Positions 1 to 57,644 of a stretch of 64,000 nucleotides of DNA are shown here, one piece after another; positions within the stretch are counted from its first letter, which is position 1, and each line of letters opens with the position of its first letter. The stretch is from Gammaproteobacteria bacterium (GTDB lineage: Bacteria; Pseudomonadota; Gammaproteobacteria; JBCCGL01), in the NCBI GenBank assembly GCA_965277715.1, contig OZ255836.1, positions 3,680,001 to 3,744,000 on the forward strand, given 5' to 3'. The notes under the pieces were generated by a model. The model saw only the letters and a list, made by a program, of their open reading frames with translations. It was not told the DNA's origin and made no database searches. The translations under genes and the position numbers were made by a program.

Positions 1-338
1 GTTTCGGCATTCCCCAGCGGCAATACACCAGAGACGGGCAGGAAAAATTGCTGCTTCGCCAATCCATGCACGGTATTATGCCCGATGAGGTATTGTATAA
101 CCGTCACCGTGGGTTAATAGCGGGTGATCTGGACAACTGGATGTGGACAAACCGAGCGGAAATAGTGGATATTCTCCAGCACCTGAAAAACTCCCCCACA
201 GTACGGCACTGGCTGGATTTAGGGCTTTTAAATGATGCGCTCCAGCACTGTGAGATCAGAGGTGTTGAGCATTTACACCAGGGAGTTATCACGCTGCGGG
301 GTATTCTAATCGGTCGTTTTCTTATGCAGTTTGACTAA
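1..338 (+). CDS. Asparagine synthetase-like protein, probable lasso peptide cyclase (C-terminal part, truncated by window start)
   Basis: Open from base 3: FGIPQRQYTRDGQEKLLLRQSMHGIMPDEVLYNRHRG matches the Asn-synthase C-terminal K.LLR.AM.G.LP.EV..R.K/RG pattern; lies directly upstream of a lasso precursor. Confidence 0.75.
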   Translation, partial: FGIPQRQYTRDGQEKLLLRQSMHGIMPDEVLYNRHRGLIAGDLDNWMWTNRAEIVDILQHLKNSPTVRHWLDLGLLNDALQHCEIRGVEHLHQGVITLRGILIGRFLMQFD

Positions 339-395
339 TGGAAAGAATACCATTAAATTTGCAACCGACAACGTTAACTCACTTAACAGGTAACT

Positions 396-548
396 ATGAT
401 GCAAGAAAAAACGCCAACACTAAACGCCACCCCTTCCGAAAAGAAAGCCTACCAAAGCCCGATAATGACGGATTTCGGTACGGTGAAGCAATATACTCAA
501 GGTACAAACGGGGGTAATACAAATGCTGAGGGTAACGGCAATTCCTGA
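396..548 (+). CDS. Lasso peptide precursor, 50 aa (MMQEKTPTLNATPSEKKAYQSPIMTDFGTVKQYTQ-GTNGGNTNAEGNGNS)
   Basis: Hand translation, below the ORF-track cutoff; SD-like CAGGT before the ATG; leader YQSPIMTDFGTVKQYT fits YxxPx(L/M)xxxGxxxxxT; core starts with Gly, contains Glu and ends in Ser. Confidence 0.85.
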   Translation: MMQEKTPTLNATPSEKKAYQSPIMTDFGTVKQYTQGTNGGNTNAEGNGNS

Positions 549-564
549 GTAAACACTTGACACC

Positions 565-1476
565 TTGGCGTGTAAGCCAAATAGTTGTTTTTCCACGGGT
601 GTGGCGAAACGGGGGGTTGAACGTTTTTTTCTGGTAGTAGGTATGCACCGCAGCGGAACCAGTTGTCTTGCTGGATGCCTGGCGAGAAGCGGTATGTATT
701 TAGGTCCAGCTCCAGGTTCCAACCAATTTAACGCACCAGGCTATGGTGAGCTTCGTTCAGTAAAATGGCTGCATGACCAGATATTGGCTTTAAACAGAGG
801 TGGGTGGTATAAACCGCCTGCCAATGTGGTAGTGCATGACTATCATCAAGCCGCTATGCGCCATATAGTCAACCAGCTTGCACGGAGACGCCTCTGTGGC
901 GTAAAAGACCCTCGAACGCTGCTCATGCTTGATGCTTGGGAAACGATTATTGGTTCTCGGTGCCACCTTATCGGCACTTTTCGCCATCCTCTCGCGGTGG
1001 CGGCTTCTCTTAACCAGCGTAACGGTATTCCAGTTGAACAAGGTCTCACGCTTTGGCGGCACTATAATCAGCGGTTGGTAGAGCGCCACCAAAAAACCTC
1101 TTTTCCGCTAGTGGAGTTCAACTTGCACGATGTCAATGCCTATTGTGGCGTAGTTACCGAAGTTGCCACGCAATCTGGGCTTAAACCCCACTTTATGCAA
1201 TTGCGCCGTTTCGTTCGCCAACCCCTGGAGCACCATAAACTGAAAAAACAAGACCTGCCTGTGGATTGTGCTGAAACTTACGCCTATTTGATGGATAACC
1301 GTAAAGGTGGTTCGCCTGAGAGGGTTGCCGCACCTTCATTCCCTGGCGATAGACGTTGGCAGTCTGTTCAAGCGTATGGCAAAGAAGTAATTTTTAGAAA
1401 CCGCGACTTTTTGACGGCTCTATCCGAGCGCCTGCGACCGAAATACACCAAGGGAACTGCCCATGTCACAACTTGA
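565..1476 (+). CDS. Sulfotransferase family protein (true start may be GTG 601)
   Basis: PAPS-binding loop VVGMHRSGTS, KDPR motif, and FRHPLAVAASL. Confidence 0.8.
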   Translation: MACKPNSCFSTGVAKRGVERFFLVVGMHRSGTSCLAGCLARSGMYLGPAPGSNQFNAPGYGELRSVKWLHDQILALNRGGWYKPPANVVVHDYHQAAMRHIVNQLARRRLCGVKDPRTLLMLDAWETIIGSRCHLIGTFRHPLAVAASLNQRNGIPVEQGLTLWRHYNQRLVERHQKTSFPLVEFNLHDVNAYCGVVTEVATQSGLKPHFMQLRRFVRQPLEHHKLKKQDLPVDCAETYAYLMDNRKGGSPERVAAPSFPGDRRWQSVQAYGKEVIFRNRDFLTALSERLRPKYTKGTAHVTT

Positions 1477-2269
1477 GGTGATCAAACGCGGCGAACGCTT
1501 TCTTTGCTCTGGCATCAAACCCAGAATCGCGACAGGTGAGTTGCGCAAGCAGTTCTCTGTGGCCGAACCATTCCCTCATTTAGTGCTGGACGACTTTCTT
1601 CCGACTGAGTTTATTCGTGCTATTGTCGATAATTTTCCTGCCAAAAGCGAAGCCAGCGTCTACCATACCGTCCCTCACCAGCAAGGCAAACGCGGTTACC
1701 GGCCACAGAATTTGGGTGACAACCCGTGCCGACATTATTTGCCACTCTTTAATTCACCACCCGTAGTAAAGTTTCTGGAAACGGTAACGGGGATAAAGCC
1801 CTTGCTTATCGACCCTTCTTTTCTGGGCGGAGGTCTGCATGAAATAGACCCCGGCGGTAAACTGGCCGTTCACTCAGACTTTAACCTGCATAAAGAGCTC
1901 AATCTGCAAAGACGCATTAATATGTTGATTTACCTCAACGAATCCTGGGAGGCGAACTACGCAGGCAATCTGGAGCTGTGGGACGGAGAATTGAGCCAGT
2001 GCGTAAAATCAATAGCACCCATTTTTAACCGTTGCGTAATCTTCGCCACAGACCTGAAGTCATTTCACGGGCATCCAGAAACCTTGTCCTGCCCTGAACA
2101 TATGACGCGCCGGTCAATCGCGCTATATTACTATACGGCTATTGAACCGGGAGACAAACTCAATACCACCAGCGTCTGGAGACCGCGGCCTGGTAGCCAC
2201 GATCTTGTGCCATCCGGCAGAAAATCGGTTGCCCGGCGGGTGTTTAACAAGCTTAAGCGTTGGAATTAA
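1463..2269 (+). CDS. 2OG-Fe(II) oxygenase
   Basis: PFPHLVLDDFL, HxD motif (VHSDF), distal His (SFHGHP) and RRSIALYYY; overlaps both neighbours. Confidence 0.85.
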   Translation: MSQLEVIKRGERFLCSGIKPRIATGELRKQFSVAEPFPHLVLDDFLPTEFIRAIVDNFPAKSEASVYHTVPHQQGKRGYRPQNLGDNPCRHYLPLFNSPPVVKFLETVTGIKPLLIDPSFLGGGLHEIDPGGKLAVHSDFNLHKELNLQRRINMLIYLNESWEANYAGNLELWDGELSQCVKSIAPIFNRCVIFATDLKSFHGHPETLSCPEHMTRRSIALYYYTAIEPGDKLNTTSVWRPRPGSHDLVPSGRKSVARRVFNKLKRWN

Positions 2270-3126
2270 ACTTGCCTGGATTAACGGCATTTCCAGGCCG
2301 TATCATATCGTACCTTCAAAGCTGGAGGCTGGCGTTTACCACTGACCTCAGCCGCCTGCAATACTATCTTATGCTCGTCGGCAACCCAAGCTCGGGAACT
2401 ACGTTAACACGCACGTTACTGAATGCGCACCCAGAAATCGTAGTAAGTGTTGAATTGAATATCCTGAAAGAGATCGAAGCGAACAAAAGCTGGCGTTCGA
2501 TAGTGGGGCGTATTTTGTATAACGCACAGCGCTTTGACAACAACCCTTTTTGGACCGGCATCAACTATCGGATAGCAAAACTCTCAGGGCGAGGTAAAAA
2601 GCCGTTGCGGGTTATTGGTGACAAACGCGCGGCAGATACGGCGGCATATCTGGCGCGAAATCCCGCGCTGTTATTCGCATTACACCAGTGGTCACCGGTA
2701 CCGGTGCGGTTTATCCACTGCGTGCGTCATCCCTGTGACGTAATCGCCACCAGAATCCGCCGTGGCAAGCTGGACCGCTACGGTAGGTTGGACGCGACGT
2801 ATAATCTGCACAAGTATGTCGAGCTGGAAAAAATCGCTGCGCAACTGTTTTCCGTATTGGGTGAACGCCGTTGTCTGCGGTTCTACCATGAAGAGCTAAT
2901 TGAGGATCCTATACCGGTATTGCAACAGTTGACCACTTTTCTGGGCGTGCAGGCAGGACAGGCCTATTTTGACGCCTGCCGCTCCCTTATCTATAAAAAG
3001 CCCAATAAAAGCCGTTTACAGCGACAATGGACTACGCAGGAGAGGCAAATGATCGAACGTGAAACCGCAAGTATTCCTCACCTGGCGCGTTATTTTGACA
3101 ATGGGCACCTATCCTTTGATGCATAA
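2260..3126 (+). CDS. Sulfotransferase family protein
   Basis: GNPSSGTTL...LNAHPEI, IGDK, and FIHCVRHPCDVIA; YHEELIEDP...LTTFLG tail. Confidence 0.8.
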   Translation: MELNLPGLTAFPGRIISYLQSWRLAFTTDLSRLQYYLMLVGNPSSGTTLTRTLLNAHPEIVVSVELNILKEIEANKSWRSIVGRILYNAQRFDNNPFWTGINYRIAKLSGRGKKPLRVIGDKRAADTAAYLARNPALLFALHQWSPVPVRFIHCVRHPCDVIATRIRRGKLDRYGRLDATYNLHKYVELEKIAAQLFSVLGERRCLRFYHEELIEDPIPVLQQLTTFLGVQAGQAYFDACRSLIYKKPNKSRLQRQWTTQERQMIERETASIPHLARYFDNGHLSFDA

Positions 3127-4204
3127 ACCAACCAAGCGCGCCCCGCTATTTGAAACGCTACAATTCACTATCATCTACACCCCCGGTACAGTTTATTTTC
3201 TTACCTGGATGGTGACCAGTCTGCTTAAGCATTCGCCCTGTTCGTTCCGTCTAGTGTCTAACGGGTGCATGGTGCCAGAGCAACGCTACCTGGAACATTT
3301 TTGCCGCCGGGATCAACGCCTGAGTTTTCTGGCGCTCTCTACCGATCACTACCTACCCCACGGTGAGATACTGGATTATCTGCAAGCCATCCATACCGAC
3401 GAATGGTTCTGCTTTTTGGACTCGGATATGTTTGCTACAGCGGACTTTCTGGCAGAGTTTACTGTCGATATCCCCCGCTACGCAGCCGTATTCTCTGGTG
3501 CGCCAGTCTGGGCGACCGCCTCAGATCAGATACTGCCGGAAAATTTCAAAATCATCAGCGGTCATCATACCGATAGTGACCGGCAACATTGCCTGGGCTG
3601 CACTTATTTTGCCGTATACAACAACGCCCTGCTGGGTGAACTGCGGTCCCGTACCGGGCTTAGCTTTAAAACTGCGTATTGGAACGACATCGCGGAACAA
3701 CATCAGCAAAAATTAATTGCCCTCGGCCTGAAAAAGAAATTCTACGATACTGCACGGCTACTGAATCTGATGCTGGTCTACGAAGGGCACGCACTGTGCT
3801 ATCAGGATTTACCTTCGCTGACCCATATAGGCGGGTTTAGTTATATCCCCGGCAGGGAATTCTCAAGTAGTTTGGCAGGTCGAATATACAGGGCTTTGTC
3901 GATAGTATTTCATCGTAACGTTTTGGTGAAAAAACTGGAAAAATGGCGTCGGCGTCGCAGTTACCGACACCTGCAACCTATCGATAACGAAGAATTGGAG
4001 GCGGTTATTGCGCAACGGATCGAGCAGCGCGACCCTGTGCGCAATTATTTTTACAGCTTGTTTAAAGCCTTGCCGACAAAATCACCTTTGCCACCATTAC
4101 CCAGGGTAAAAAACCGGGAAGTTGACCAACGTCTACGCACAGCGGCGTCTGCGGTACAGCTTCTATACCAGGAATACGAGACCGAGGGTCAGAAGAAAAC
4201 ATGA
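3119..4204 (+). CDS. Glycosyltransferase-like protein (GT-A fold)
   Basis: LVSNG followed by FCFLDSD (DxD motif) and a later HIGG; ATG 3119 overlaps the end of the upstream gene. Confidence 0.55.
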   Translation: MHKPTKRAPLFETLQFTIIYTPGTVYFLTWMVTSLLKHSPCSFRLVSNGCMVPEQRYLEHFCRRDQRLSFLALSTDHYLPHGEILDYLQAIHTDEWFCFLDSDMFATADFLAEFTVDIPRYAAVFSGAPVWATASDQILPENFKIISGHHTDSDRQHCLGCTYFAVYNNALLGELRSRTGLSFKTAYWNDIAEQHQQKLIALGLKKKFYDTARLLNLMLVYEGHALCYQDLPSLTHIGGFSYIPGREFSSSLAGRIYRALSIVFHRNVLVKKLEKWRRRRSYRHLQPIDNEELEAVIAQRIEQRDPVRNYFYSLFKALPTKSPLPPLPRVKNREVDQRLRTAASAVQLLYQEYETEGQKKT

Positions 4205-5220
4205 CAACACCAATTCACCGTTATACGGTTTACGGCATGCCCATTGAGGCCAATGCGCCAGTGCGGCATCTCAACACCAGCGATGAACCGGCTGTTGCGA
4301 CAAACCATGACATATTGGCACAACCGTTACAAATTACCTACCAGGGTTTGACGACGCCTCAGCTAACACCACCGGATGGTGAAATTTTATATAGCTCACC
4401 GGCTCAAACCAAAGAGGGTCGCGGCTTTTTTGAAGTGTGGAAACACGCCGGGGGGTTGTGGTTGTGTCATCACAACCACAACACAGATGACAGTGGTGTA
4501 CGCGCAGCTTATTTTGATGTCGACCCAAGTGGGCATACGCTGGATATAAGCTGGACTGCCGCGTTTAATGTCGACGATTTATCCGGGTATTTACTCGGCC
4601 CTGTACTCGGTTGCATTTTACGCACCCGGAGAGTAACACCACTACATGCTTCGGTATTAAATATCGGCGAAAAAGCGATCATCGTTACGGGTGCGAAAGG
4701 GGCTGGCAAATCAACCCTTGCGGCATTTTTCGCACGCAATGGCCACCGTGTTCTGGCGGACGATATTGCGTCACTGGTACGAAGAGAAAACAGCTATTGG
4801 GTGCATCCCGGCTACCCACACCTGCGTCTTTGGCGGGAAACGCTGGATGAATTGGGTTGTCGTGATGCACTACCGCCGGTATCAGTCGGCATTGACAAGC
4901 GATATCTGGCTTTGACCGGGTCAGCGGATCAAGCCACCGCAGGATTCCAGCGTAAAGCATTGCCGCTTGCCGGCATTTTCGTATTGGAAAATTTCAATGC
5001 AAGCTGTTCGGTTTCAATAACCCCTCTAGTACGTGCCGAAGGCCTTATAAATCTGGTCAGAAATACCTATGCTGATTACCTGTTGGATGCCACAGGGAGA
5101 GGCCGGGATTTTGATTTTCTGACTGGATTGCTGGCGGATACTGCCGTCTATAAAGTCTCCCGACCTCGGGATCTGGCCCTTCTGCCCGAGGTGATTGAGG
5201 CTATCGTCGGCATCTGCTAA
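4201..5220 (+). CDS. HPr kinase-like protein (lasso peptide kinase type)
   Basis: LHAS, Walker A GAKGAGKST and LADD motifs; ATGA overlap with the upstream gene. Confidence 0.8.
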   Translation: MTTPIHRYTVYGMPIEANAPVRHLNTSDEPAVATNHDILAQPLQITYQGLTTPQLTPPDGEILYSSPAQTKEGRGFFEVWKHAGGLWLCHHNHNTDDSGVRAAYFDVDPSGHTLDISWTAAFNVDDLSGYLLGPVLGCILRTRRVTPLHASVLNIGEKAIIVTGAKGAGKSTLAAFFARNGHRVLADDIASLVRRENSYWVHPGYPHLRLWRETLDELGCRDALPPVSVGIDKRYLALTGSADQATAGFQRKALPLAGIFVLENFNASCSVSITPLVRAEGLINLVRNTYADYLLDATGRGRDFDFLTGLLADTAVYKVSRPRDLALLPEVIEAIVGIC

Positions 5221-5271
5221 ATGAGGTGTTTTTTTGTGATAGAGGTCGTTCCACCCTATCAGCCCCTTCAA

Positions 5272-5434
5272 CCTAGAAAACGCAGTTGAGTGCGAAAAAG
5301 CTGTGCAAGGCATTGGTGTGCATGGGACCGTTAAAAAATGCGTGGTCACCTTATTGGCGATGAGCAATTTTTACACTTTTCCAGGTGCGCCAAGGGCTTG
5401 TGCAGACTTTCGTGAGGCAACTGCGGAATTTAGG
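5272..5434. mobile_element. MITE-like element, 163 bp, imperfect terminal IRs, 5-bp TSD TTCAA
   Basis: Left CCTAGAAAACGCAGTTG and right CAACTGCGGAATTTAGG; TTCAA at 5267-5271 and 5435-5439. Confidence 0.7.
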
Positions 5435-5506: not shown

Positions 5507-6256
5507 TTAACAGGTGTAGTTCATCGCCAGCCGACCACCGTCAATGTAAATAGTTTCACCGGATATATAGCTGGCTTTATCACTGGCCAGAAACGCCACC
5601 ACATCACCGACTTCCCGGGGTTTACCAATACGTTTAAGGGGGGTGCGTGACATAACCATTTTCATTGCCTCGGCATCGGGATTGACGCTCGCCATCATTG
5701 CTGTATCGATAGATCCCGGCCCCACCGCGTTAACGCGAATGCCATGTGTTGCCAATGCGACAGCAGCGGCTTTGGTCAATTGCATTACGCCGCCTTTCGA
5801 GGCGCAGTAGGGGGCGATAGAGGGGATGGCGACGCGCTCGTTAATGGATGACATGTTGACAATCGCGCCCTGAATGTTATGCGTTACCATGGATTTCGCT
5901 GCGCGCTGTAATGCCAGGAATGTCCCGGTCAAATTGACATTGATGACTGCCTGAAAGGTTTCCAGCGTGGTCTCCAAAAAATCACAGGGATAGGAAATAC
6001 CCGCGTTGTTGACCAAAATCGATACCGGGCCAAGTGTGCTTTCAATCTGATCGAACATTGCGTTGATTTGCACGGGGTCACCCATATCGCAGGTAATCGC
6101 CTGTGTTTTACTACCTAATCGATTCGCCGCCGCGTTAACATTTTCAGTATTGATATCCGCCAGGACAATGTGCGCGCCGTCTTCGGCAATGGCCTCGGCG
6201 CAAGCGTAGCCGATGCCCTGGGCGCCACCGGTAATTAAAGCGATAGGTTTATTCAT
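5507..6256 (-). CDS. SDR family oxidoreductase
   Basis: TGGAQGIG, NNAG and YCASK motifs. Confidence 0.9.
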   Translation of the reverse strand: MNKPIALITGGAQGIGYACAEAIAEDGAHIVLADINTENVNAAANRLGSKTQAITCDMGDPVQINAMFDQIESTLGPVSILVNNAGISYPCDFLETTLETFQAVINVNLTGTFLALQRAAKSMVTHNIQGAIVNMSSINERVAIPSIAPYCASKGGVMQLTKAAAVALATHGIRVNAVGPGSIDTAMMASVNPDAEAMKMVMSRTPLKRIGKPREVGDVVAFLASDKASYISGETIYIDGGRLAMNYTC

Positions 6257-8254: not shown

Positions 8255-9439
8255 TTAATTGGGGATAGTGATTAATTCGCGGGCGACATGGCTCAAGCGC
8301 TCGCCACCGTGTTGTGTCACGACAAAAGGCTCTGAAATCGCCGCGCCAAAGTCATCCAGCCACATGCCGGACTGGAAATGAAAACACATACCTTCCTGGA
8401 GTACGGTGGTGTCTCCTGGGCGTAGGCTTGCTGTGCGCTCGCCCCAATCGGGTGGGTAGTTGAGGCCGATGGAATACCCGACCCGGCTGTCTTTGCTGTA
8501 ACCGTGGCGTTTGAGCACGCCTTGCCAGGTTGCCTCAACTGCTTCGCAGGTGACCCCCGGTTTGGCCATAGCGAGCGCTTTGTCTCCCCCTTCAATAATA
8601 ACATCGGCTAGCCGGGCAATTTCGTCTGGTGGCGTGCCGATGTACATCGTGCGGGTCAGTGGTGCGTGGTAGTGCCGCCGGGCGGCGCCGATTTCCATCA
8701 CCACCAGGCCACTCTTGGGCAGGGGTTCATCGGTCCAGGTTAAATGGGGTGTGCTGGTGCCTTCCCCTACCTGAATGAGTGGGCATAGGCTGGTGTAGTC
8801 ACCAAACTTATTATCACAGCCGGTAACCTGTGCATGGTAGACATCGGCGATCACTTCAAACTGGCGAACCCCCGGCTGGATTCTGGCGATGGCCGTGTTC
8901 ATGGTGTCGGTGATGATACGCCCCGCCTCGCGCATATAGACTAGCTCGGCGTCTGACTTTACCAGTCTGGCCCAGTTGACGATTTCATGGTTGTCGGCAA
9001 TGTGGGCATTGGGTAGGCCTTTTGTCAGGTGTTGATGCGCCCGTGCGGTGTAGTAATGGGCATCGAGCTCGACACCAATTCGCGATGCCCCCCAGCCCCG
9101 TGCAATCAACAGCGCGCATAGCTCATCGAAAGGGTGTTGGCTTGGGTGGTGTACCAGCGACTCAGAAAACCCGATGATATTGTCGTCGGGTATGTCGGTG
9201 GTAATGCGGGCTGACTTTGCATCCTGTGCGCGACCAAACCAGATGGGTGATGCTTCCTCCAGGTGTAAAATAACGGCCTGAGGGGTGTAGAAAGACCAAC
9301 CGTCAAACCCGGTCAGCCAGCCCATACTGGCGGGGTCCTGGCATACCAGCAGGTCGAACCCCGCCGCTACCATGCGCCTTTTTACTTTTTCGACACGTTG
9401 CGCGTATTCATATTTTTCAAAGGGTTTGTTGTAGTGCAT
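8255..9439 (-). CDS. M24 family peptidase, ectoine hydrolase DoeA/EutD-like
   Basis: DPASMGWLTGFDGWSFY, PHLTW and GYSIGLNYPPDWGERTASLR. Confidence 0.75.
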   Translation of the reverse strand: MHYNKPFEKYEYAQRVEKVKRRMVAAGFDLLVCQDPASMGWLTGFDGWSFYTPQAVILHLEEASPIWFGRAQDAKSARITTDIPDDNIIGFSESLVHHPSQHPFDELCALLIARGWGASRIGVELDAHYYTARAHQHLTKGLPNAHIADNHEIVNWARLVKSDAELVYMREAGRIITDTMNTAIARIQPGVRQFEVIADVYHAQVTGCDNKFGDYTSLCPLIQVGEGTSTPHLTWTDEPLPKSGLVVMEIGAARRHYHAPLTRTMYIGTPPDEIARLADVIIEGGDKALAMAKPGVTCEAVEATWQGVLKRHGYSKDSRVGYSIGLNYPPDWGERTASLRPGDTTVLQEGMCFHFQSGMWLDDFGAAISEPFVVTQHGGERLSHVARELITIPN

Positions 9440-17841: not shown

Positions 17842-19125
17842 ATGCGTGCCGCCACTGAAGTAACCAATAACGACGTATACCATTACATGCAGAGGCTTGG
17901 CGCACGCGCACGCGTGGCCAGCCGTGCTATCGCCAGTGCCAGCACGGCAGATAAGAACGCTGCGTTATTGGCCATCGCCGAGGCTATCGAAAGTAACCGC
18001 GCAGTATTGCGCCGAGAAAATGCGCGTGATCTCGACACCGGGCGCCGCAATCAACTTGCGGCTGCGTTGCTGGATCGTCTGGAGCTGAACGATGCGCGCA
18101 TTGCGGGCATGGCCAATGGGTTGCGCCAGATTGCCCAGTTGCCTGATCCGGTGGGCCAAATCAGTGATATGAGCTACCGACCCTCGGGGTTGCAGGTGGG
18201 GCGTATGCGCGTACCGCTGGGCGTGATTGGTATTATTTATGAATCGCGGCCCAATGTTACCGCCGATGCGGCGGCGCTGTGTTTGAAATCGGGTAATGCG
18301 ACGATTCTGCGAGGGGGGTCTGAGGCCATTCACTCCAACCGCGCTATTGCCGCCTGTATTGGCGAGGGTTTGCAAAATGCCGGTTTGCCTGCCGACAGTG
18401 TGCAGGTGGTGGAAACCACCGAGCGCGCCGCAGTTGGTGAGTTGATTTCGATGAACGATTACATCGATATTATTATCCCGCGTGGCGGTAAAGGTTTGAT
18501 CGCACGGATTAGCCGCGAGGCCACCGTACCGGTGATCAAACACCTCGATGGTATCTGCCATGTTTATATCGATGCATATGCCGACCCGGAAAAAGCCGTG
18601 GCCGTCGCCGTTAACAGCAAAACCTATCGTTACGGCATTTGTGGTGCGATGGAGACGTTGCTGATCGATGGGGCCGTGGTCGAACAGGTATTGCCCGCCA
18701 TCGCCGAACAATTGCACGCGCTGGGTGTCGAGCTGCGAGGGTGTCAGCGCTGCTGTGCACTTATCGACGGTATGGTAAAGGCCGATGCGCAGGACTGGTG
18801 CACCGAGTACCTTGCACCCGTACTCTCGGTGCGGGTGGTCGACGGTATTGAGGCGGCGATGCAGCATATCGCGCAGTATGGCTCTGGACACACCGATGCC
18901 ATTATTACGGACAACCTCAACCAGGCGCAGCGGTTTATGCGGGAGGTGGATTCCAGTTCAGTGATGGTCAATGCCGCCACTTGCTTTGCCGATGGCTTCG
19001 AGTATGGTCTCGGTGCAGAAATAGGCATCAGTACCGATAAACTGCATGTGCGCGGCCCGGTAGGTGTCGAGGGTTTAACGACACAAAAATATATTGTGAT
19101 TGGCCAGGGCACGGTTCGCCGTTAA
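17842..19125 (+). CDS. proA: Gamma-glutamyl phosphate reductase
   Basis: [23 protein letters not shown] and [18 protein letters not shown]. Confidence 0.97.
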
Positions 19126-45574: not shown

Positions 45575-47839
45575 ATGCCAGCCAGGAACCCCCCATCAAG
45601 AAAAAACCAAACCCCAAAAGAGGAACTAAAACAACGCTTGGAAAAACTGGCAGTGAAAGACCGGGAAGCCCTCGCGGTATTTGCCGGTCGCTGTGCTTTG
45701 CGGGTGATGCCCTGGTTGGCAACTGATAAAGGGTTGACGTATTGGGGGGATAATCAGGTAAAGCATTTGCTGGCAGTAGAAGCCGCCAGCATATCGGCTT
45801 TGTTATATAATCTTAATGCCGCCGCCTATGCCGCCTACGCCGCCGCCGCCGCCGCCGCCGCTGCCGCCAACGCCTACGCCGCCACCGCCGCCTACGCCGC
45901 CACCGACGCCGCCTACGCCGCCAACGCCGCCAACGCCGCCAACGCCGCCAACGCCGCCTACGCCGACGCCAACACCGTCGCCTACGCCGCTATAAAAAAC
46001 GACCTCAACCTACTAGAAAAAGGCCAAACCCAAACCGTCAGAGAACACCCACTATGGCCCAACCATTCCCCACCTAAAAGCTTCCCAAAGCGACTCAAAC
46101 AATTCGAAGAAACCCTCCAAAACCTAAACCAACACGACCTCCTAAACCGCTACCAAGCCCTACTAAAAGGCGGCACTGACCCCGCCGCAATCTATAAAGG
46201 CGTTTTAGAAAGCTGGCTCGAAACCAAAGACACTGACCCCGATAACACGGCTAAAACCACTCCACCCCAATACATAGCCACCACCCGCACAGCCGCCGAA
46301 AAACCCGGTCAACAAGATCACCTAAACCGCACTCACCTGGCCCAGGCGCTCAGCCGCTTCCTACTCGATAAAGACAACATCGAACACCAAACCATCGGCC
46401 TGCTGGGCGATTGGGGCGTAGGCAAAACCACGTTTATCAACCTGTTAAAAAAAGCACTGAGCGCCGATAAACAAGGCGTAAAATTTTTGTGCGGCGACTA
46501 CAACGCCTGGGAGTTTGAGCACACCAGCAACCAACAGGCAGGTATGGCCCAAAAGGCGATTAAAGGCTTAACCGATGACCTGAACTGGTGGCGCAAGCGG
46601 TGCCTGGCGTTTCGCCTGAGCCGAAAGAACAAACCGGTATTGACCGTGCTGATACCGATGGTACTTATCGCCTTGGCGCTATTGTTTTCAGATTTAACAC
46701 CCGTGCCAAATATGCTGCGCTGGGCGGTGGAGGCGTATCTTCCCGAGTCGGTTTTCACCAGTTTGTATAAAGCACACCCTATATTGATCAATGCTCTGCC
46801 GGTTTTTCTGGCGCTGTCTCTGCTGTCCTGGCAGTTTTTGTTTCGTATGCCGGACTTACTGCGTAGCCCCACCCACAAGTACTGGTCGACGTTTCTCAGC
46901 TTGCCGAATTTTGAAAAAGACCTCGGCACTATTCCGGTGATGCGTCGACAGATCGAAGACCTGGCCCAATTGCGGCTCAGTGAAAACCGGCCCGTCAAAC
47001 AGCGGTTTTTATTTGTCGTCGATGATCTCGACCGCTGTGGTGATGAGGCGATTGTGCGGGTGCTGGAGGCGGTGCGGCTGGTGATGGATATTCAGGGTGT
47101 GGTGGTGCTGATCGCTATCGACCACCGGGTGGCGCTGGCGTCGCTGGCTCTGCGTTACCAGGAAATGGCGAAGTACCACGAAAACCGTGACGCCAATGCG
47201 ATTGGCCGCGACTACCTGGCCAAGCTGATTCACCTGCCGATTCAGCTACAGCAGCCAGATAGTGGATCGGTGGAGGGTTATCTCGTCTCGCTGTGGGGAG
47301 ACGCAGCCGATGATGACCCGGCGCCCTCGGCTTCACCCAACACCGATAAACCCGATACGGCCAAGCAAGCGGCAGCGGCTCGGGAACAACAGGCCGATAC
47401 GCCGGATGCAGCGCCCGCGCCCCGGCGGCTGGAAACCGTGGCGTCGAAAACAGCCAACGCCCTGGATAAAGGTAAAGAAATGGGCATGAGCGCCGAACAA
47501 AAATCAGTGTTTATCCATTGGTGTCACTACTTTGATATCGCCAATCCCCGGCAGGTTAAGCGCCTGTACAATACTTACAATCTGTTGCGGCATTACTATG
47601 TTGAGGCGTCAATGGCGCCAGCGCAGGTGCAGGCAAGTTGGGAAAACTACCCGGTGTTGGCGGTGTTGTTTGTCTTGGAATATGCATTTCATCACCAGGT
47701 CAATATTGATGAACCGATTGATAATGCGGTTATTGCCGGGAAGTTGCGGGAAGTGAAGGTGCCGATGGATGCAGATTTTGATGAAGTGCGGGAGAAGATA
47801 GCGCCGTTTGTTTTACCTGCTTCTGGGCGGGTTATGTAG
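45575..47839 (+). CDS. KAP family P-loop NTPase with Ala-rich N-terminal domain
   Basis: GDWGVGKT, YNAW, two TM helices, VVDDLDRC, YLAKLIHLP and NPRQVKRL. Confidence 0.9.
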   Translation: MPARNPPSRKNQTPKEELKQRLEKLAVKDREALAVFAGRCALRVMPWLATDKGLTYWGDNQVKHLLAVEAASISALLYNLNAAAYAAYAAAAAAAAAANAYAATAAYAATDAAYAANAANAANAANAAYADANTVAYAAIKNDLNLLEKGQTQTVREHPLWPNHSPPKSFPKRLKQFEETLQNLNQHDLLNRYQALLKGGTDPAAIYKGVLESWLETKDTDPDNTAKTTPPQYIATTRTAAEKPGQQDHLNRTHLAQALSRFLLDKDNIEHQTIGLLGDWGVGKTTFINLLKKALSADKQGVKFLCGDYNAWEFEHTSNQQAGMAQKAIKGLTDDLNWWRKRCLAFRLSRKNKPVLTVLIPMVLIALALLFSDLTPVPNMLRWAVEAYLPESVFTSLYKAHPILINALPVFLALSLLSWQFLFRMPDLLRSPTHKYWSTFLSLPNFEKDLGTIPVMRRQIEDLAQLRLSENRPVKQRFLFVVDDLDRCGDEAIVRVLEAVRLVMDIQGVVVLIAIDHRVALASLALRYQEMAKYHENRDANAIGRDYLAKLIHLPIQLQQPDSGSVEGYLVSLWGDAADDDPAPSASPNTDKPDTAKQAAAAREQQADTPDAAPAPRRLETVASKTANALDKGKEMGMSAEQKSVFIHWCHYFDIANPRQVKRLYNTYNLLRHYYVEASMAPAQVQASWENYPVLAVLFVLEYAFHHQVNIDEPIDNAVIAGKLREVKVPMDADFDEVREKIAPFVLPASGRVM
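45817..45990 (+). repeat. GCC/AAC/TAC low-complexity tract encoding poly-Ala with Y, N, T and D
   Basis: Runs of GCC and repeated GCCAACGCC units. Confidence 0.85.
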
Positions 47840-52724: not shown

Positions 52725-55598
52725 TTAATCAGATTCAATATAACTATCCAACGGCGGACAGGAACAGATCAGGTTTTTATCTCCCCAGGCGTTGTCGACA
52801 CGCCCTACCGGCGGCCAGTATTTGGCAATGTGTTGGTTGTCAGCGTAGGGGTAGGCGGCCATTCGACGGCTATAGGGTCTGTCCCAGTCATCGCTGAGCA
52901 GGTCTTCGGCGGTGTGGGGTGCGTTGCGCAAGGGGTTGTTTTCGGTGTCAAACTCGCCTTGTTCCACTTTGCTGAATTCGGCGTGGATGGACAGCATGGC
53001 TTCGCAGAAACGATCCAGTTCGTTTTGCGATTCGCTTTCTGTCGGTTCGATCATCAGGGTGCCAGGGACGGGAAAAGACATGGTGGGCGCGTGGAAGCCA
53101 TAGTCCATCAAACGCTTGGCGATGTCGTCTACGGTGATGCCGGCACGGTCTTTGAGTGGCCGTGTATCGAGAATACATTCGTGTGCCACCAGGCCGTTTT
53201 CACCTGTGTAGAGAATGCTGTAGTGTTGGCTGAGCCGGTGGGCGATGTAGTTGGCACTGAGTATTGCCACTTGCGTGGCTCGCTTTAAGCCCGCACCACC
53301 CATCATGCGCAGGTACATCCAGGTGATGGGCAGGATGCCCGCGCTACCCCACGGGGCCGCGCTGACGGCACCGCCACTGCGGGCACCATTGAGCAGTTGA
53401 TGCCCCGGCAGGAAGGGGGCGAGGTGTTTGCCGACACCAATTGGCCCGATACCGGGGCCACCCCCCCCGTGGGGGATGCTGAAGGTTTTGTGCAGGTTTA
53501 AATGCGAGACGTCGCCACCAAATTTACCGGGCGCTGTTACCCCCAGCATGGCGTTGAGGTTTGCCCCGTCGATATAGACCTGCCCACCTGTGGCGTGGAC
53601 GCGTTCACAGGCGTCGACGATGCCCGATTCGAATACCCCGTGGGTTGAGGGGTAGGTGATCATTACGGCGGCGATGCGGTCAGGGTATTGGTCAATTTTT
53701 GCCTGTAGATCGTCGAGGTCGATGTTGCCGTGTTCATCGCAGGCGGTGACGATGACGTTCATGCCCGCCATTTGTGCACTGGCCGGGTTGGTGCCGTGCG
53801 CAGAGGCGGGGATAAGACAAATGTCGCGGCCATGTTCACCCCGGCTTTCGTGGTAGCGTTTGATCGCCAGCAGGCCAGCGTACTCACCCTGGCTACCGGC
53901 GTTGGGCTGTAGTGACATGGCGTCGTAACCCGTGCACGCACAGAGCATGGCTTCCAGTTCATCAGCCATTTGCTGGTAGCCACGGCGTTGGTCGGCGGGG
54001 GCAAAAGGGTGCATATCGGCGAATTCCGGCCAACCCACGGGGGCCATTTCTGCGGCGGCATTGAGTTTCATGGTGCATGAGCCCAGCGGGATCATGGCGC
54101 GGTCCAGTGCGATGTCTTTGTCTGCCAGGTTGCGCAGGTAGCGCATCATCTCGGTTTCTGAGTGGTAGGTATTAAATGCCGGCTGGGTGAGGAAGGTATC
54201 GTTGCGGGTGTGGCTTGCAGGCAGGTTGGCGGCGGCGAGGGCTGTGGCGGGTGATAGGTGGCCACCAAATTCAGGCACAATGATGGCGGCAAGGGTGTTG
54301 ATGTCATCAAGTGTGCAGGTTTGATCGAGGGCAATACACACGCAGTGATCGCTATGGCGTTGTAGGTTGTAGCCCGCGCTGGCGGCGGCGCTTATCAGTG
54401 TATCGGTTTTGTCGTGGCTGTCGATGGCCACGGTGTCGAAATAGTGTGTGTGCCGCAGTGTGATGCCGTGCCCACTCAGCAGTTGGGCGAGGGTTGCCGC
54501 CAACTGGTGAGTTTGCCAGGCGATGGCCTGTAGGCCCTGGCGCCCGTGGTAGCAGGCAAATAAGGTCGCCAGTACCGCCAGTAATGCCTGGGCTGTGCAG
54601 ATATTTGATGTCGCTTTTTCCCGGCGGATATGTTGCTCGCGGGTTTGCAGCGCAAGCCGGTAGGCGGGGCGGCCCGCGCTATCCACGGACTCGCCGATGA
54701 GACGGCCTGGCATATTGCGTTTGAATTTGTCCCGGGTGGCAAAAAATGCAGCGTGCGGACCACCAAACCCCAGTGGAACGCCAAAGCGCTGTGAGTTGCC
54801 GACGACGACATCGGCGCCCAGTTTGCCGGGTGGTGTCAGTACGGTGAGTGCGAGAATATCGGCGGCCATAATCACCATTGCGCCATTGGCGTGGGCGCTG
54901 TCAATCAGGGGCTGGAAGTCGGTGACTGCACCATCGCACCCTGGGTATTGCAGCAGCACGGCAAAGGTGTCACCCCATTCTATATCGGTGCCCGTACTGG
55001 CCATTGGGTTCAGGTTTTCTATGTCTATATCAATGGGTGCAGCGCGGGTATTTAAAATATCGCGTGTTTGTGGCAGGCAGTTTGCGTCGACCAGCAAGCG
55101 CCGCCGTTTGCCACGCAGGGCGCGGTGGCACAGGGCCATTGCCTCTGCCGCTGCTGTGCCCTCGTCGAGCATTGAGGCGTTGGCGATGTCCATCCCGGTC
55201 AGTTCGGTGATGAGTGTCTGGAAGTAAAACAGTACTTCCAGGCGGCCTTGCGAGATTTCCGGTTGGTAGGGGGTGTAGGCAGTATACCAGCCAGGGTTTT
55301 CGAGTACGTTGCGTTTGATTACCTGGGGCACGTAGCAGCCGCTATAGCCCTGGCCAATCAGTGGCTTTTTGAGGGTATTCTGTTCGGCGATGGCACGCAG
55401 TGCCGCCAGCGCAGCCTCTTCGGATAAGCCCGCCGGTAAATCGAGCGGTTCTGGCTGGGCAATGTTTTGTGGAACCACCGCATCGCTGAGGGCATCGAGC
55501 GAATCGTAGCCAAGCGTGGCGAGCATGGCATCGATTTGTTGTTGGTTGGGGCCGATATGACGGGCAACAAAAGGGGACAACACAGCTTCAGCGGACAT
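52725..55598 (-). CDS. gcvP: Glycine dehydrogenase (P protein)
   Basis: [36 protein letters not shown] and HLNLHKTF. Confidence 0.98.
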
Positions 55599-56235: not shown

Positions 56236-57321
56236 TCAGACGCATGCCCGACCATTTTTGACAAACGGATAATTGACCACGCGTGCCGCTATTGGTTTAC
56301 CGCGAATATCCACTGCGCAGTGGTGTTCGACGGCTGTATCGACCCGCGCCAGGGCAATTGTGGCGCCCAGCGTGGGTGAAAAGGTGCCACTGGTGACCTC
56401 ACCCGCCGGGGCGCCATTAAGCAGTACAGCCTGATGGCTGCGCAATACTCCCCGGCCTTCGAGCATCAAACCTACCAGCTTTTTGTCGATGCCTTGATCG
56501 AGCTGCGCCTGTAGTGCTGCCCGGCCAGTGAACAGGCGCGTTGCTGGTTGCATGGCGACTGTCCAGCTTAGCCCTGAGATCAGTGGTGAGGTTTGCTCGT
56601 CCAGGTCGTTGCCGTACAGTGCCATTCCGGCCTCCAGACGCAGGGTGTCACGGGCGCCGAGGCCAATAGGGGCCACTCCGAGCGCAGCGAGTTTTTGCCA
56701 TATGTCGACTACTTCGGTTTCTGGTATCACCAGTTCATAGCCGTCTTCACCTGTGTAACCTGTGCGTGCGACAAACCAATTGCCCTGTGCTGCGGCTGAG
56801 AACCGGGTGAGTTGCTGTACTGGGTCAAGTAGCGCTTGCGGGATGAGCTTTTGTGTCAGTGCGCAGGCTTGAGGCCCTTGCACAGCAATCATGGCAACGC
56901 CGGTTTTCTGCTGGGCGTTGACGTCAAATGTGGCGGATTGTTGCGCGATCCAGGCGAGGTCTTTGGCGCGGGTGGCGGCGTTGACGATGAGGCGGTACTG
57001 GTTGTCGGCCATAAAATAGACGATCAGGTCATCGATAACACCACCGGTTTCATTGAGCATGCAGCTATACAGCGCCTTGCCAGGCACAGTGAGTTTGCCA
57101 ATGTCATTGGCCAGCAGTTGGCGAAGGAAGTCGGCGGCCTGGGGGCCGTGTATATCGACCACGGTCATATGTGACACATCGAACATGCCGGCATGGCGGC
57201 GTACAGCATGGTGTTCTTCTATTTGGGAGCCGTAGTGAACGGGCATATCCCAGCCTGAAAAGTCCACCATCTTTGCCCCCATTTCCCGGTGGGCCTGGTT
57301 GAGTGGTGTTTGTTGGGTCAT
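56236..57321 (-). CDS. gcvT: Aminomethyltransferase (T protein)
   Basis: GMFDVSHM, RTGYTGEDGYE and GLGARDTLRLEAG. Confidence 0.97.
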   Translation of the reverse strand: MTQQTPLNQAHREMGAKMVDFSGWDMPVHYGSQIEEHHAVRRHAGMFDVSHMTVVDIHGPQAADFLRQLLANDIGKLTVPGKALYSCMLNETGGVIDDLIVYFMADNQYRLIVNAATRAKDLAWIAQQSATFDVNAQQKTGVAMIAVQGPQACALTQKLIPQALLDPVQQLTRFSAAAQGNWFVARTGYTGEDGYELVIPETEVVDIWQKLAALGVAPIGLGARDTLRLEAGMALYGNDLDEQTSPLISGLSWTVAMQPATRLFTGRAALQAQLDQGIDKKLVGLMLEGRGVLRSHQAVLLNGAPAGEVTSGTFSPTLGATIALARVDTAVEHHCAVDIRGKPIAARVVNYPFVKNGRACV

Positions 57322-57371
57322 TGGTTTATCAGCTCCGCAATACAAAAGTTAGCCACCAACGAAAGCTGGCG

Positions 57372-57568
57372 GCGCCCCTCTGTCCGGTTACCTGAGAGAT
57401 TGAGACAGGTAGCCTGTCTTTTCCCCGTTGGCGGACACTGTCGTGCCACTCTCCAGAGCCGACGATACTGTTGATGGTCCATTTGCCTGAGCGTTTCCGG
57501 GCGGGTTGCGCCTTCGGCGTTCTGATGTGCGCAATAAGCGTTTTTCAGAAACTCTCCCATCAAGTATC
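57372..57568 (-). ncRNA. Tandem glycine riboswitch
   Basis: Two aptamers on the minus strand upstream of gcvT: GGGAGAG...GCCGAAGGCGCAA...CTCAGG and CTCTGGAGAG...CTCTCAGGT..GGACAGAGGGG. Confidence 0.93.
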
Positions 57569-57644
57569 AATGTCGAGGCGTATAATATAATCTAGTCTTC
57601 GATAAATACCAAGCTTGACCGCCTGGTACAGGCATAGAAATATT

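Follow-up and report, generated by a model that had tools for sequence, protein, structure and literature searches.

A probable kinase-tailored lasso peptide cluster in a bacterium from sponge metagenomes, with the only acidic residue of the predicted precursor core at position 10

Lasso peptides are both defined and searched for in genomes by means of two rules, namely a ring of 7–9 residues and the presence of bulky residues acting as plugs. The first rule is stated for natural lasso rings in PMC9266682 and PMC8498205, and it had been quoted in an earlier note on the DNA described here. A 9-residue ring closed on Asp counts 28 atoms, and altering the size of the ring by a single residue usually leads to strongly reduced production (PMC13352647). 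Ten-residue macrolactams are within the reach of a lasso cyclase, as known from an analogue engineered with the fusilassin/fuscanodin enzymes (DiCaprio 2019; Koos and Link 2019; as reported in PMC8498205 and PMC13352647); however, this analogue was obtained in vitro by varying a 9-residue ring, whereas the spacing discussed in the following is genome-encoded and corresponds to 8 in the homologous precursors. In open-access papers and bioRxiv, searched without supplements, no natural ten-residue lasso ring was found, no sulfated lasso peptide (from 2019 onward) and no lasso peptide from a sponge symbiont.

Among the described systems, the closest are the kinase-tailored lasso peptides of Zhu et al. 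2016, i.e. paeninodin (PadeK), ThcoA/ThcoK and SyanA/SyanK of Sphingobium yanoikuyae. According to PMC8498205 and PMC9266682, through which they are cited, PadeK, ThcoK and SyanK act on the precursor while it is linear, and not on the folded lasso, and (poly)phosphorylate its terminal Ser. These clusters share with the present one an HPr-kinase homologue, a precursor ending in Ser, a lasso leader and an Asn-synthase-like cyclase, but their ring acceptor is found at position 7–9, whereas here the candidate acceptor is at position 10 of a core with no bulky residue; furthermore, two sulfotransferases, a prolyl-4-hydroxylase-like oxygenase and a GT-A-like protein, all encoded here, are not described for them. 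Pseudomycoidin (PsmK/PsmN), a phospho-glycosylated lasso peptide, offers a parallel for decoration placed on a phosphorylated C-terminal Ser, leading to a bulky anionic tail end, but no PF14907 nucleotidyltransferase is found in the visible part of the present cluster, which contains sulfotransferases and an oxygenase instead. A 2OG oxygenase in a lasso cluster is known from canucin A, where CanE carries out the Fe/2OG-dependent beta-hydroxylation of the linear precursor (PMC9266682); unlike CanE, the present oxygenase is prolyl-4-hydroxylase-like and faces a core with neither Pro nor Asp; Asn as its target would be a guess. Finally, the system of the linear polyphosphorylated peptides (LPP), as described in PMC13381572, resembles the present one in its HprK-type kinase and RRE-dependent leader recognition, but differs in its leader motif (YxxPxVLxHQxIxFETxxS), to which the present leader fits only as far as YxxPx, in its SipW-like peptidase, no signal peptidase being found in the visible part of the cluster, and in having no cyclase, for which a gene is present here.

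The window, i.e. the whole stretch of 64 000 nucleotides that was analysed, contains at positions 396–548 of the + strand an ATG-started ORF for a product of 50 residues, MMQEKTPTLNATPSEKKAYQSPIMTDFGTVKQYTQGTNGGNTNAEGNGNS, which is also found in the protein collection as a called protein (P0001) and is very probably the real precursor of a lasso-type RiPP cluster of the kinase-tailored kind. The leader peptide would comprise residues 1–35 (396–500, + strand) and the core peptide residues 36–50 (501–545, + strand). Counted from Gly36, Tyr19 is found at −17, Pro22 at −14, Met24 at −12, Gly28 at −8 and Thr34 at −2, so that both an RRE-binding leader motif and the Thr at −2 of lasso precursors are present. 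With its Met at −12 the leader departs conservatively from the motif [Y/W]xxPx[L/V/I/F/A], as quoted in PMC13381572, and in the two homologous precursors Leu is found at this place. Among the NCBIfam models, lasso_cyano (E 4.5e-4) and lasso_leader_L3 (E 0.054) match the leader weakly, neither of them reaching its cut-off. Across the six frames of the window the strict leader motif is found three times, to be compared with a mean of 0.23 (maximum 2) in 100 codon-block shuffles used as the chance control, and only the occurrence in 396–548 belongs to a stand-alone ORF; the other two, at 18168 (+) and 61258 (−), are off-frame or antisense within large ORFs.

In the predicted core the only Asp or Glu residue is Glu45, at core position 10 (codon GAG, 528–530), while position 8 is taken by Asn (AAT, 522–524). 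Beyond Glu10 the tail is G-N-G-N-S, the precursor ending with Ser50 (core position 15; TCC, 543–545), which is followed by the stop codon TGA at 546–548; a terminal Ser is what characterizes precursors of kinase-tailored clusters. The core contains five Asn, two Thr and the single terminal Ser, and neither aromatic residues nor Pro, Tyr, Lys, Arg, Met or Cys; an acidic residue at core position 7, 8 or 9, bulky plug residues and disulfides are all missing. The translation, thus, bears out the anatomy that the earlier note had read from the letters, namely a YxxPxMxxxGxxxxxT leader with Thr34 at −2 and the same core, a single acidic residue at position 10, a GNGNS tail devoid of aromatic or bulky locks, and the count of Asn, Thr and terminal Ser as candidate modification sites.

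The precursor starts 58 nt 3′ of the end of an ORF (3–338, + strand) that runs off the 5′ end of the window and encodes the C-terminal 111 residues of an Asn-synthase-like protein, presumed to be the lasso cyclase. An Asn-synthase-homologous cyclase beside the precursor is indicated by the match of this fragment to PF00733 (Asn_synthase; E 1.4e-6, 28.7 bits with a cut-off of 21, profile positions 252–329 of 354). The top NCBIfam match is the lasso cyclase NF033535 (E 0.0023), far under its cut-off, the weak score being explained by the gene being cut by the window edge; a PDB sequence search with the fragment gave no match, and over 71 residues it is 30% identical to the ORF directly upstream of the precursors of a related locus (L028). 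The precursor ORF is located in a gap of 305 nt between the end of the cyclase ORF (338) and the probable start of the first tailoring gene (643). Promoter-like hexamers (TTGACT, 17 nt, TAAATT; 331–359, + strand) match the consensus at 9/12 positions, and since nine such sites are found in the region against 6.3 ± 2.4 in shuffles, they receive weak support. With respect to a terminator 3′ of the precursor, folding of 540–645 gave z = 0.22, and a weak consensus match is found at 565–580.

The 3′ end of the cyclase gene, the precursor and five tailoring genes share a strand, neighbouring genes being closely spaced or overlapping. The first of the five encodes a probable sulfotransferase (ST1; 643–1476, + strand), whose ORF is listed from a TTG at 565, the ATG at 643 being the likelier start. 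Its match to PF13469 (Sulfotransfer_3) is sub-threshold (E 0.0078, 16.9 bits), and in the Atlas feature search it scores 0.97 to clusters named as sulfotransferases, in which PF13469 is present in 11–66% of members; searches gave no PDB match and no detectable similarity to the second sulfotransferase. Next comes a prolyl-4-hydroxylase-type 2OG-Fe(II) oxygenase (1463–2269, + strand; PF13640, E 4e-17), to which OGFOD1 and PHD/EGLN come closest among solved structures (E 1e-4 to 8e-3), with a weak NCBIfam match, below cut-off, to the RiPP oxygenase YhhC (E 1e-5). An H-x-D…H pattern is visible in its translation, which we take to be the motif of this enzyme type. The second sulfotransferase (ST2; 2260–3126, + strand) is clearer, matching PF13469 with E 4.2e-14 and also PF00685, and among solved structures it is nearest to protein-tyrosine sulfotransferase 2 (E 4e-7) and to CurM sulfotransferase. 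For the 381-residue protein encoded at 3059–4204 (+ strand; likely start ATG 3101) Pfam, NCBIfam and PDB searches gave no match and an AlphaFold model built from the sequence alone had too low a pLDDT (38.9) to be of use, but its Atlas matches (0.97–0.99) include one cluster in which 76% of members carry PF00535 (Glycos_transf_2), a lead from the Atlas by which it would possibly be a GT-A-type glycosyltransferase.

The last gene of the series (4201–5220, + strand) encodes an HPr-kinase-like peptide kinase, i.e. the enzyme by which kinase-tailored clusters are recognized, with matches to PF07475 (Hpr_kinase_C, E 1.6e-6), TIGR04352 (HprK_rel_A, E 3e-12) and HPr kinase structures (E 1e-3). It has 236 homologues, one of them named serine/threonine protein kinase, and the top non-self match is 43% identical, P0003–P0007 being at 41–43%. 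His149, Lys170, Asp187 and Asp188 are invariant in alignment A2 and appear to correspond to the published His-Lys-Asp-Asp motif (PMC9266682). Within 1–5220 neither a PqqD-like RRE (B1) nor a transglutaminase-like peptidase (B2) is found; the cluster extends upstream of the window, where the N-terminal part of the cyclase, B1, B2 and any exporter or additional precursor genes would be located. Most probably, judging from its gene content, this is a kinase-tailored lasso cluster with a precursor ending in Ser and a new set of tailoring enzymes.

The whole 5.3-kb stretch is present in contigs of four studies, although in run X7 it is split into several pieces that leave small parts uncovered; the contig of run X1 reaches 8,179 nt upstream of the window start. 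One run is identical to the window and may be its source, whereas three runs labelled sponge metagenome differ from it, and in the two sponge runs with the stretch in one piece 32 and 36 differences are found in 5,300 nt (0.6–0.7%). Within 396–548 the sole difference listed is the synonymous 413 G>A (Thr6), a comparison that is incomplete for run X5, with eleven differences outside those listed, and the X7 contig across 1–678 carries exactly two differences, at 316 and 413. As the strains are about 0.6% apart and the peptide is short, little can be concluded from a single synonymous change as to selection acting on the peptide. Over the cluster, 23 synonymous and 17 non-synonymous codon changes (1237 and 4004 sites, respectively) lead to a pN/pS of about 0.23, in a count where one position falls in two overlapping frames and positions 613 and 616 in a doubtful 5′ extension; this ratio indicates that the cluster is under constraint, and it appears to be maintained. 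Among the runs listed as containing the stretch, none is of RNA. In three studies the bacterium was recovered as a whole assembly from sponge metagenome runs, the word depth being high in one of these runs, and on these grounds the product may be relevant to symbiosis.

Homologues of the precursor were sought by word index among 5.8 billion sequences and by a full HMMER scan among 1.84 billion representatives, and only two were found, namely P0123 (54 residues, 48% identity, E 5.5e-4 against 1.84e9 proteins) and P0124 (55 residues, 49% identity to the window precursor); a word search with the window precursor alone retrieved only itself (1/1 candidates). A third candidate, P0122, is a repeat protein of 529 residues that matches via a recurring M-T-D-L-G-T-V and was set aside as a chance or compositional match. 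Across the window precursor and the two homologues 18 columns are invariant, among them the T-Q|G junction and a block ahead of the Tyr to which the generic motif does not extend. Because the shared columns exceed the generic motif, the relation is one of homology rather than of motif convergence. The homologues have in common with the window precursor the extended leader, the T-Q|G junction and a core of 15–16 residues starting with G-S/T, but in them the acceptor is Asp8, the tail contains Lys/Met and a terminal Ser is missing. This Asp8 aligns without gaps with Asn8 of the window core (the codons AAT and GAT are one base apart), and Glu10 is present in neither. The homologues that the earlier note had proposed to align, thus, keep the leader motif but not the Glu, which touches on what the note itself had named as refuting. 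As both of them carry Asp8 and not Glu10, the latter is a lineage-specific trait and not one of the family, and a 10-residue ring, with its acceptor not conserved, rests on a single sequence. Glu10 would then be either an acceptor that has moved or an accident beside an acceptor that has been lost.

A wider frame is given by the related loci, at least six in genomes and at least eight in metagenomes, that were collected via an alignment of ten kinase sequences. Among the matches listed, 13 of the 18 motif-bearing peptides have their acceptor at position 7–9; in one (L008) the first acidic residue is at position 10, being at 9 in its three relatives; and four have no acidic residue within ten residues, three of them in L001 and one in L058. 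Also among the matches listed, L008, L009 and L058 show the cyclase–precursor–kinase gene order of the window, and no homologue of either sulfotransferase, of the oxygenase or of the 381-residue protein occurs. In the Nostoc locus L001, B1, B2, the kinase and glycosyltransferases are present and a cyclase is absent within 21 kb; the presence of the acceptor, therefore, tracks that of the cyclase in this locus, its three acceptor-less cores having none, which suggests that acceptor-less peptides can accompany cyclase loss. In L058 a full-length cyclase, carrying clear GATase domains, is found directly before a precursor whose sole acidic residue is at position 17. Cyclase-adjacent precursors outside the 7–9 rule, thus, occur more than once in the kinase-linked group.

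How the window core is to be read depends on the site of leader cleavage, which is probably after Gln35, with Thr34 at −2. Among the matches listed, all ten kinase-adjacent precursors have five residues between G(−8) and T(−2), where the pattern used allowed 4–6. This spacing is not universal across lasso families, since in PbaA, of the paeninodin type, the numbering is W-15/P-12/L-10 (PMC13381572), but a PbaA-like shift would imply an earlier cut, not a later one. Cleavage at a later site, i.e. after Asn38 (with Thr37 as the −2 residue), after Gly36 or after Thr37, would lead to a Gly1-Glu7, Asn1-Glu8 or Thr1-Glu9 ring with the five-residue tail unchanged. Such a shift is suggested by a second T-x-G triplet (T37-N38-G39) immediately after the first, by the 7-residue Gly-to-Glu ring of the xanthomonins (PMC13352647) and by the predicted cores of L007–L010, which, among the matches listed, begin with Ala, Thr, Asn or Ile, so that position 1 is not restricted to Gly. 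However, the canonical register (−17/−14/−12/−8/−2) fits the first site exactly, Gly36 and the T-Q|G junction are kept by all three members of the family, a second T-x-G is missing from the homologues, and none of the precursors listed as matches has eight residues between G(−8) and the Thr at −2. The cut after Thr37-Asn38, which the earlier note had offered as an alternative giving G1…E7, is accordingly disfavoured by the junction and spacing kept in P0123 and P0124, and a later cut at any of the three sites is improbable. A more radical doubt, namely that 396–548 is a chance open frame that is not translated, could lean on the two chance occurrences of the strict motif elsewhere in the window and on NCBIfam matches under cut-off; nevertheless a stand-alone frame that lies in a 305-nt gap, that has two homologues sharing an extended leader, whose terminal Ser fits the kinase of the cluster and which follows the cyclase gene as in L008, L009 and L058 makes this the least credible of the readings considered.

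With the cut after Gln35, the reading that fits best is a 10-residue macrolactam between Gly1 and Glu10 with a (poly)phosphorylated Ser15, to which we assign a probability of roughly 0.45; that the Gly1-Glu10 bond is actually formed is, thus, put at somewhat short of even odds. Among the parts of the earlier note that stood is that, given the canonical cut, Glu10 is the only acceptor available for such a ring, while its absence from both homologues speaks against it. A serious rival is a peptide that is acceptor-less or decayed, i.e. an uncyclised derivative (Asp8 to Asn) of a family with a canonical 8-residue ring, being either a decaying extra copy whose functional siblings are encoded upstream of the window, or a product of the B1/B2/kinase machinery that stays linear and carries phosphate, sulfate or sugar groups. 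The gap-free alignment of Asn8 with the Asp8 of the homologues is what such a loss would leave behind, the three acceptor-less cores of L001, where 21 kb contain B1, B2, the kinase and glycosyltransferases and no cyclase is found, would be a precedent, and PMC13381572 describes linear polyphosphorylated peptides relying on the same logic of kinase and RRE; moreover, part of the cluster is hidden upstream of the window. On the other hand, a cyclase gene on the same strand ends only 58 nt upstream, Glu10 is present in the core, the leader is of the lasso pattern and not of the LPP motif, the pN/pS of the cluster is about 0.23, and the similar arrangement in L058, with its cyclase directly before a precursor that has no 7–9 acceptor, suggests that such pairs may be functional. 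Taken together, an uncyclised product is unlikely, though it deserves serious weight. The alignment of Asn8 with Asp8 could also be accommodated by conversion of Asn8 to Asp, enzymatic or spontaneous, which would restore the usual Gly1-Asp8 ring of the family; the origin of lasso cyclases from an enzyme that contains an amidotransferase, and the GATase domains of the L058 cyclase, may be quoted in its favour, as conjecture only. Spontaneous deamidation of Asn is favoured by a following Gly or Ser, whereas Asn8 precedes Ala, and to our knowledge no Asn-to-Asp step is known for lasso peptides, which leaves very little probability for this route.

For the preferred reading, with the Gly1-Glu10 ring and the (poly)phosphorylated Ser15, the sequence of events may be pictured as follows; the anatomy of the sequence, the neighbouring genes and the leader homology are observed, whereas every chemical step, the cut site and the ring are inferred. 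The RRE (B1) would bind the leader via the YxxPxM motif, and the HPr-kinase homologue would then (poly)phosphorylate the hydroxyl of the terminal Ser15 on the linear peptide. The oxygenase, the two sulfotransferases and the glycosyltransferase-like protein would attach further polar groups, candidate sites being Thr2, Thr7, the five Asn and the phospho-Ser. As the core contains neither Tyr nor Pro, despite ST2 and the prolyl-4-hydroxylase-like oxygenase, the targets would be other hydroxyls, presumably on Thr2, Thr7 or Ser15, on a sugar, or on an Asn that has first been hydroxylated. The B2 peptidase would cleave after Gln35, the Asn-synthase-like cyclase would adenylate Glu10, the sole side-chain carboxylate, and attack by the amine of Gly1 on the activated Glu10 would yield the 10-residue ring and a five-residue G-N-G-N-S tail. 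By extrapolation from the 28 atoms of the 9-residue Asp ring, such a ring would count about 32 atoms.

Since no side chain of the tail can serve as a plug, the product would be either unthreaded (branched-cyclic) or held by the group on Ser15. In the threaded case, a bulky anionic group on Ser15, put on before ring closure, would hold the tail. That the peptide is a natural lasso of this kind, with a Gly1-Glu10 ring and a small polar tail retained by an enzymatically added stopper, seems doubtful at best; the stopper would be a (poly)phosphate bearing a sugar and/or a sulfate on Ser15, installed before closure, possibly assisted by hydroxylated or sulfated Asn or Thr residues above the ring, and the maker of such a peptide would be an abundant sponge symbiont.

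What makes the locus of interest is that the only visible precursor breaks both rules of the class yet keeps the leader, the cyclase and the constraint on the cluster, so that it may serve to test whether these rules reflect chemistry or sampling. Formation of the Gly1-Glu10 ring would provide the first natural lasso ring of 10 residues in the literature searched, and one would then have to ask whether steric-lock residues can be replaced by post-translational groups. If, instead, the peptide is linear, it would show a lasso pathway losing cyclisation via a single moved or lost residue. In addition, sulfotransferases acting on a core devoid of Tyr and a prolyl-4-hydroxylase-type oxygenase on one devoid of Pro point to modifications that are undescribed for the class in the literature searched.

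The distribution of the family was also considered at the level of genomes. In 400 genomes evenly drawn from the class of G001, tallies that include three genomes flagged as unpublished (G300, G044 and G145), the precursor profile retrieved no family leader, the best match (E 9.4e-5) having a different leader, and the best match of the kinase profile, in G027, is only 30% identical to the kinase of the window. The kinase used as a single query against genome contigs gave 58 pattern matches, none of which was confirmed. The nearest genome compared, G266, which has 85% identity in RNase G and is the sole member of its order in the collection, gave no match to the kinase or precursor profile and showed no synteny around the cluster. 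The gene order in the rest of the window, which contains rng-yhdP-tldD, gcvP and a type I citrate synthase, suggests a gammaproteobacterium; from position 5507 onward housekeeping-like genes are found on the opposite strand.

The acceptor Asp or Glu of natural lasso rings lies at core position 7, 8 or 9, and the precursor in the window (396-548, +), with Glu10 as the only acidic core residue, departs from this rule. Among the loci fetched through their HprK-like kinase, a complete cluster, L058 (G182:C1:2381000-2399000), carries a precursor near 8640-8840 of the locus which, as judged from its predicted core, is a further cyclase-adjacent case outside the 7-9 rule: a T-Q|G junction is present, and the sole acidic residue of the core is at position 17. 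The neighbouring cyclase contains clear GATase domains, and the gene order is B2, cyclase, precursor, HprK-like kinase, radical SAM/SPASM protein, PqqD, NTP_transf_5, ABC transporter and a second NTP_transf_5.

A metagenome contig, L008 (1-4024), in which the order is cyclase, precursor (near 890-1040), kinase, PRMT-like methyltransferase and NTP_transf_5, has its first acidic residue at position 10 of the predicted core, whereas in all three of its relatives (L007, L009 and L010) this residue is found at position 9. In the Nostoc linckia NIES-25 locus, L001 (7300-18650), three tandem peptides have lasso-type leaders, and none of the three cores has Asp or Glu within the first 10 residues. Their neighbours include PqqD and a B2-like peptidase, an HprK-like kinase, a GT1 and two GT2s, as well as an epimerase, NTP_transf_5 and an ABC transporter; a Pfam scan of 11 ORFs in the 21-kb locus detected no Asn_synthase gene. 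The product would seem to be a RiPP that stays linear, is glycosylated or phosphorylated, and is built with lasso B1/B2 parts.

With regard to the tailoring enzymes of the window, the closest solved structures to the sulfotransferase (2260-3126) are protein-tyrosine sulfotransferases, and Tyr is absent from the core peptide; those closest to the 2OG oxygenase (1463-2269) are prolyl hydroxylases, and Pro is likewise absent. The strict lasso leader pattern is also matched at two other places in the window, 18168 (+) and 61258 (-); both sites are off-frame or antisense inside large ORFs and were regarded as chance.

The bacterium of the window seems to occur repeatedly in association with sponges. 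Contigs from runs of four studies cover window 1-5300 whole, and three of the runs providing them are labelled as sponge metagenome; two sponge metagenome runs hold this region in a single piece, 0.6-0.7% different, and its word depth reaches about 1180 in one run. In the nearest genome of the collection searched (G266), the only representative of its order there, housekeeping genes share 68-79% DNA identity with those of the window, but these counterparts are spread across different contigs, so that synteny around the cluster is lacking.

Elsewhere in the window, a 754-aa protein (45575-47839, +) matches part of QatA, the ATPase of the Qat anti-phage system, at E 1.2e-23, a score well short of the cut-off. 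A glycine riboswitch aptamer (57465-57569, -; RF00504, 61.8 bits) stands upstream of a minus-strand ORF (56236-57345) and, on the same strand, of gcvP (52725-55598).
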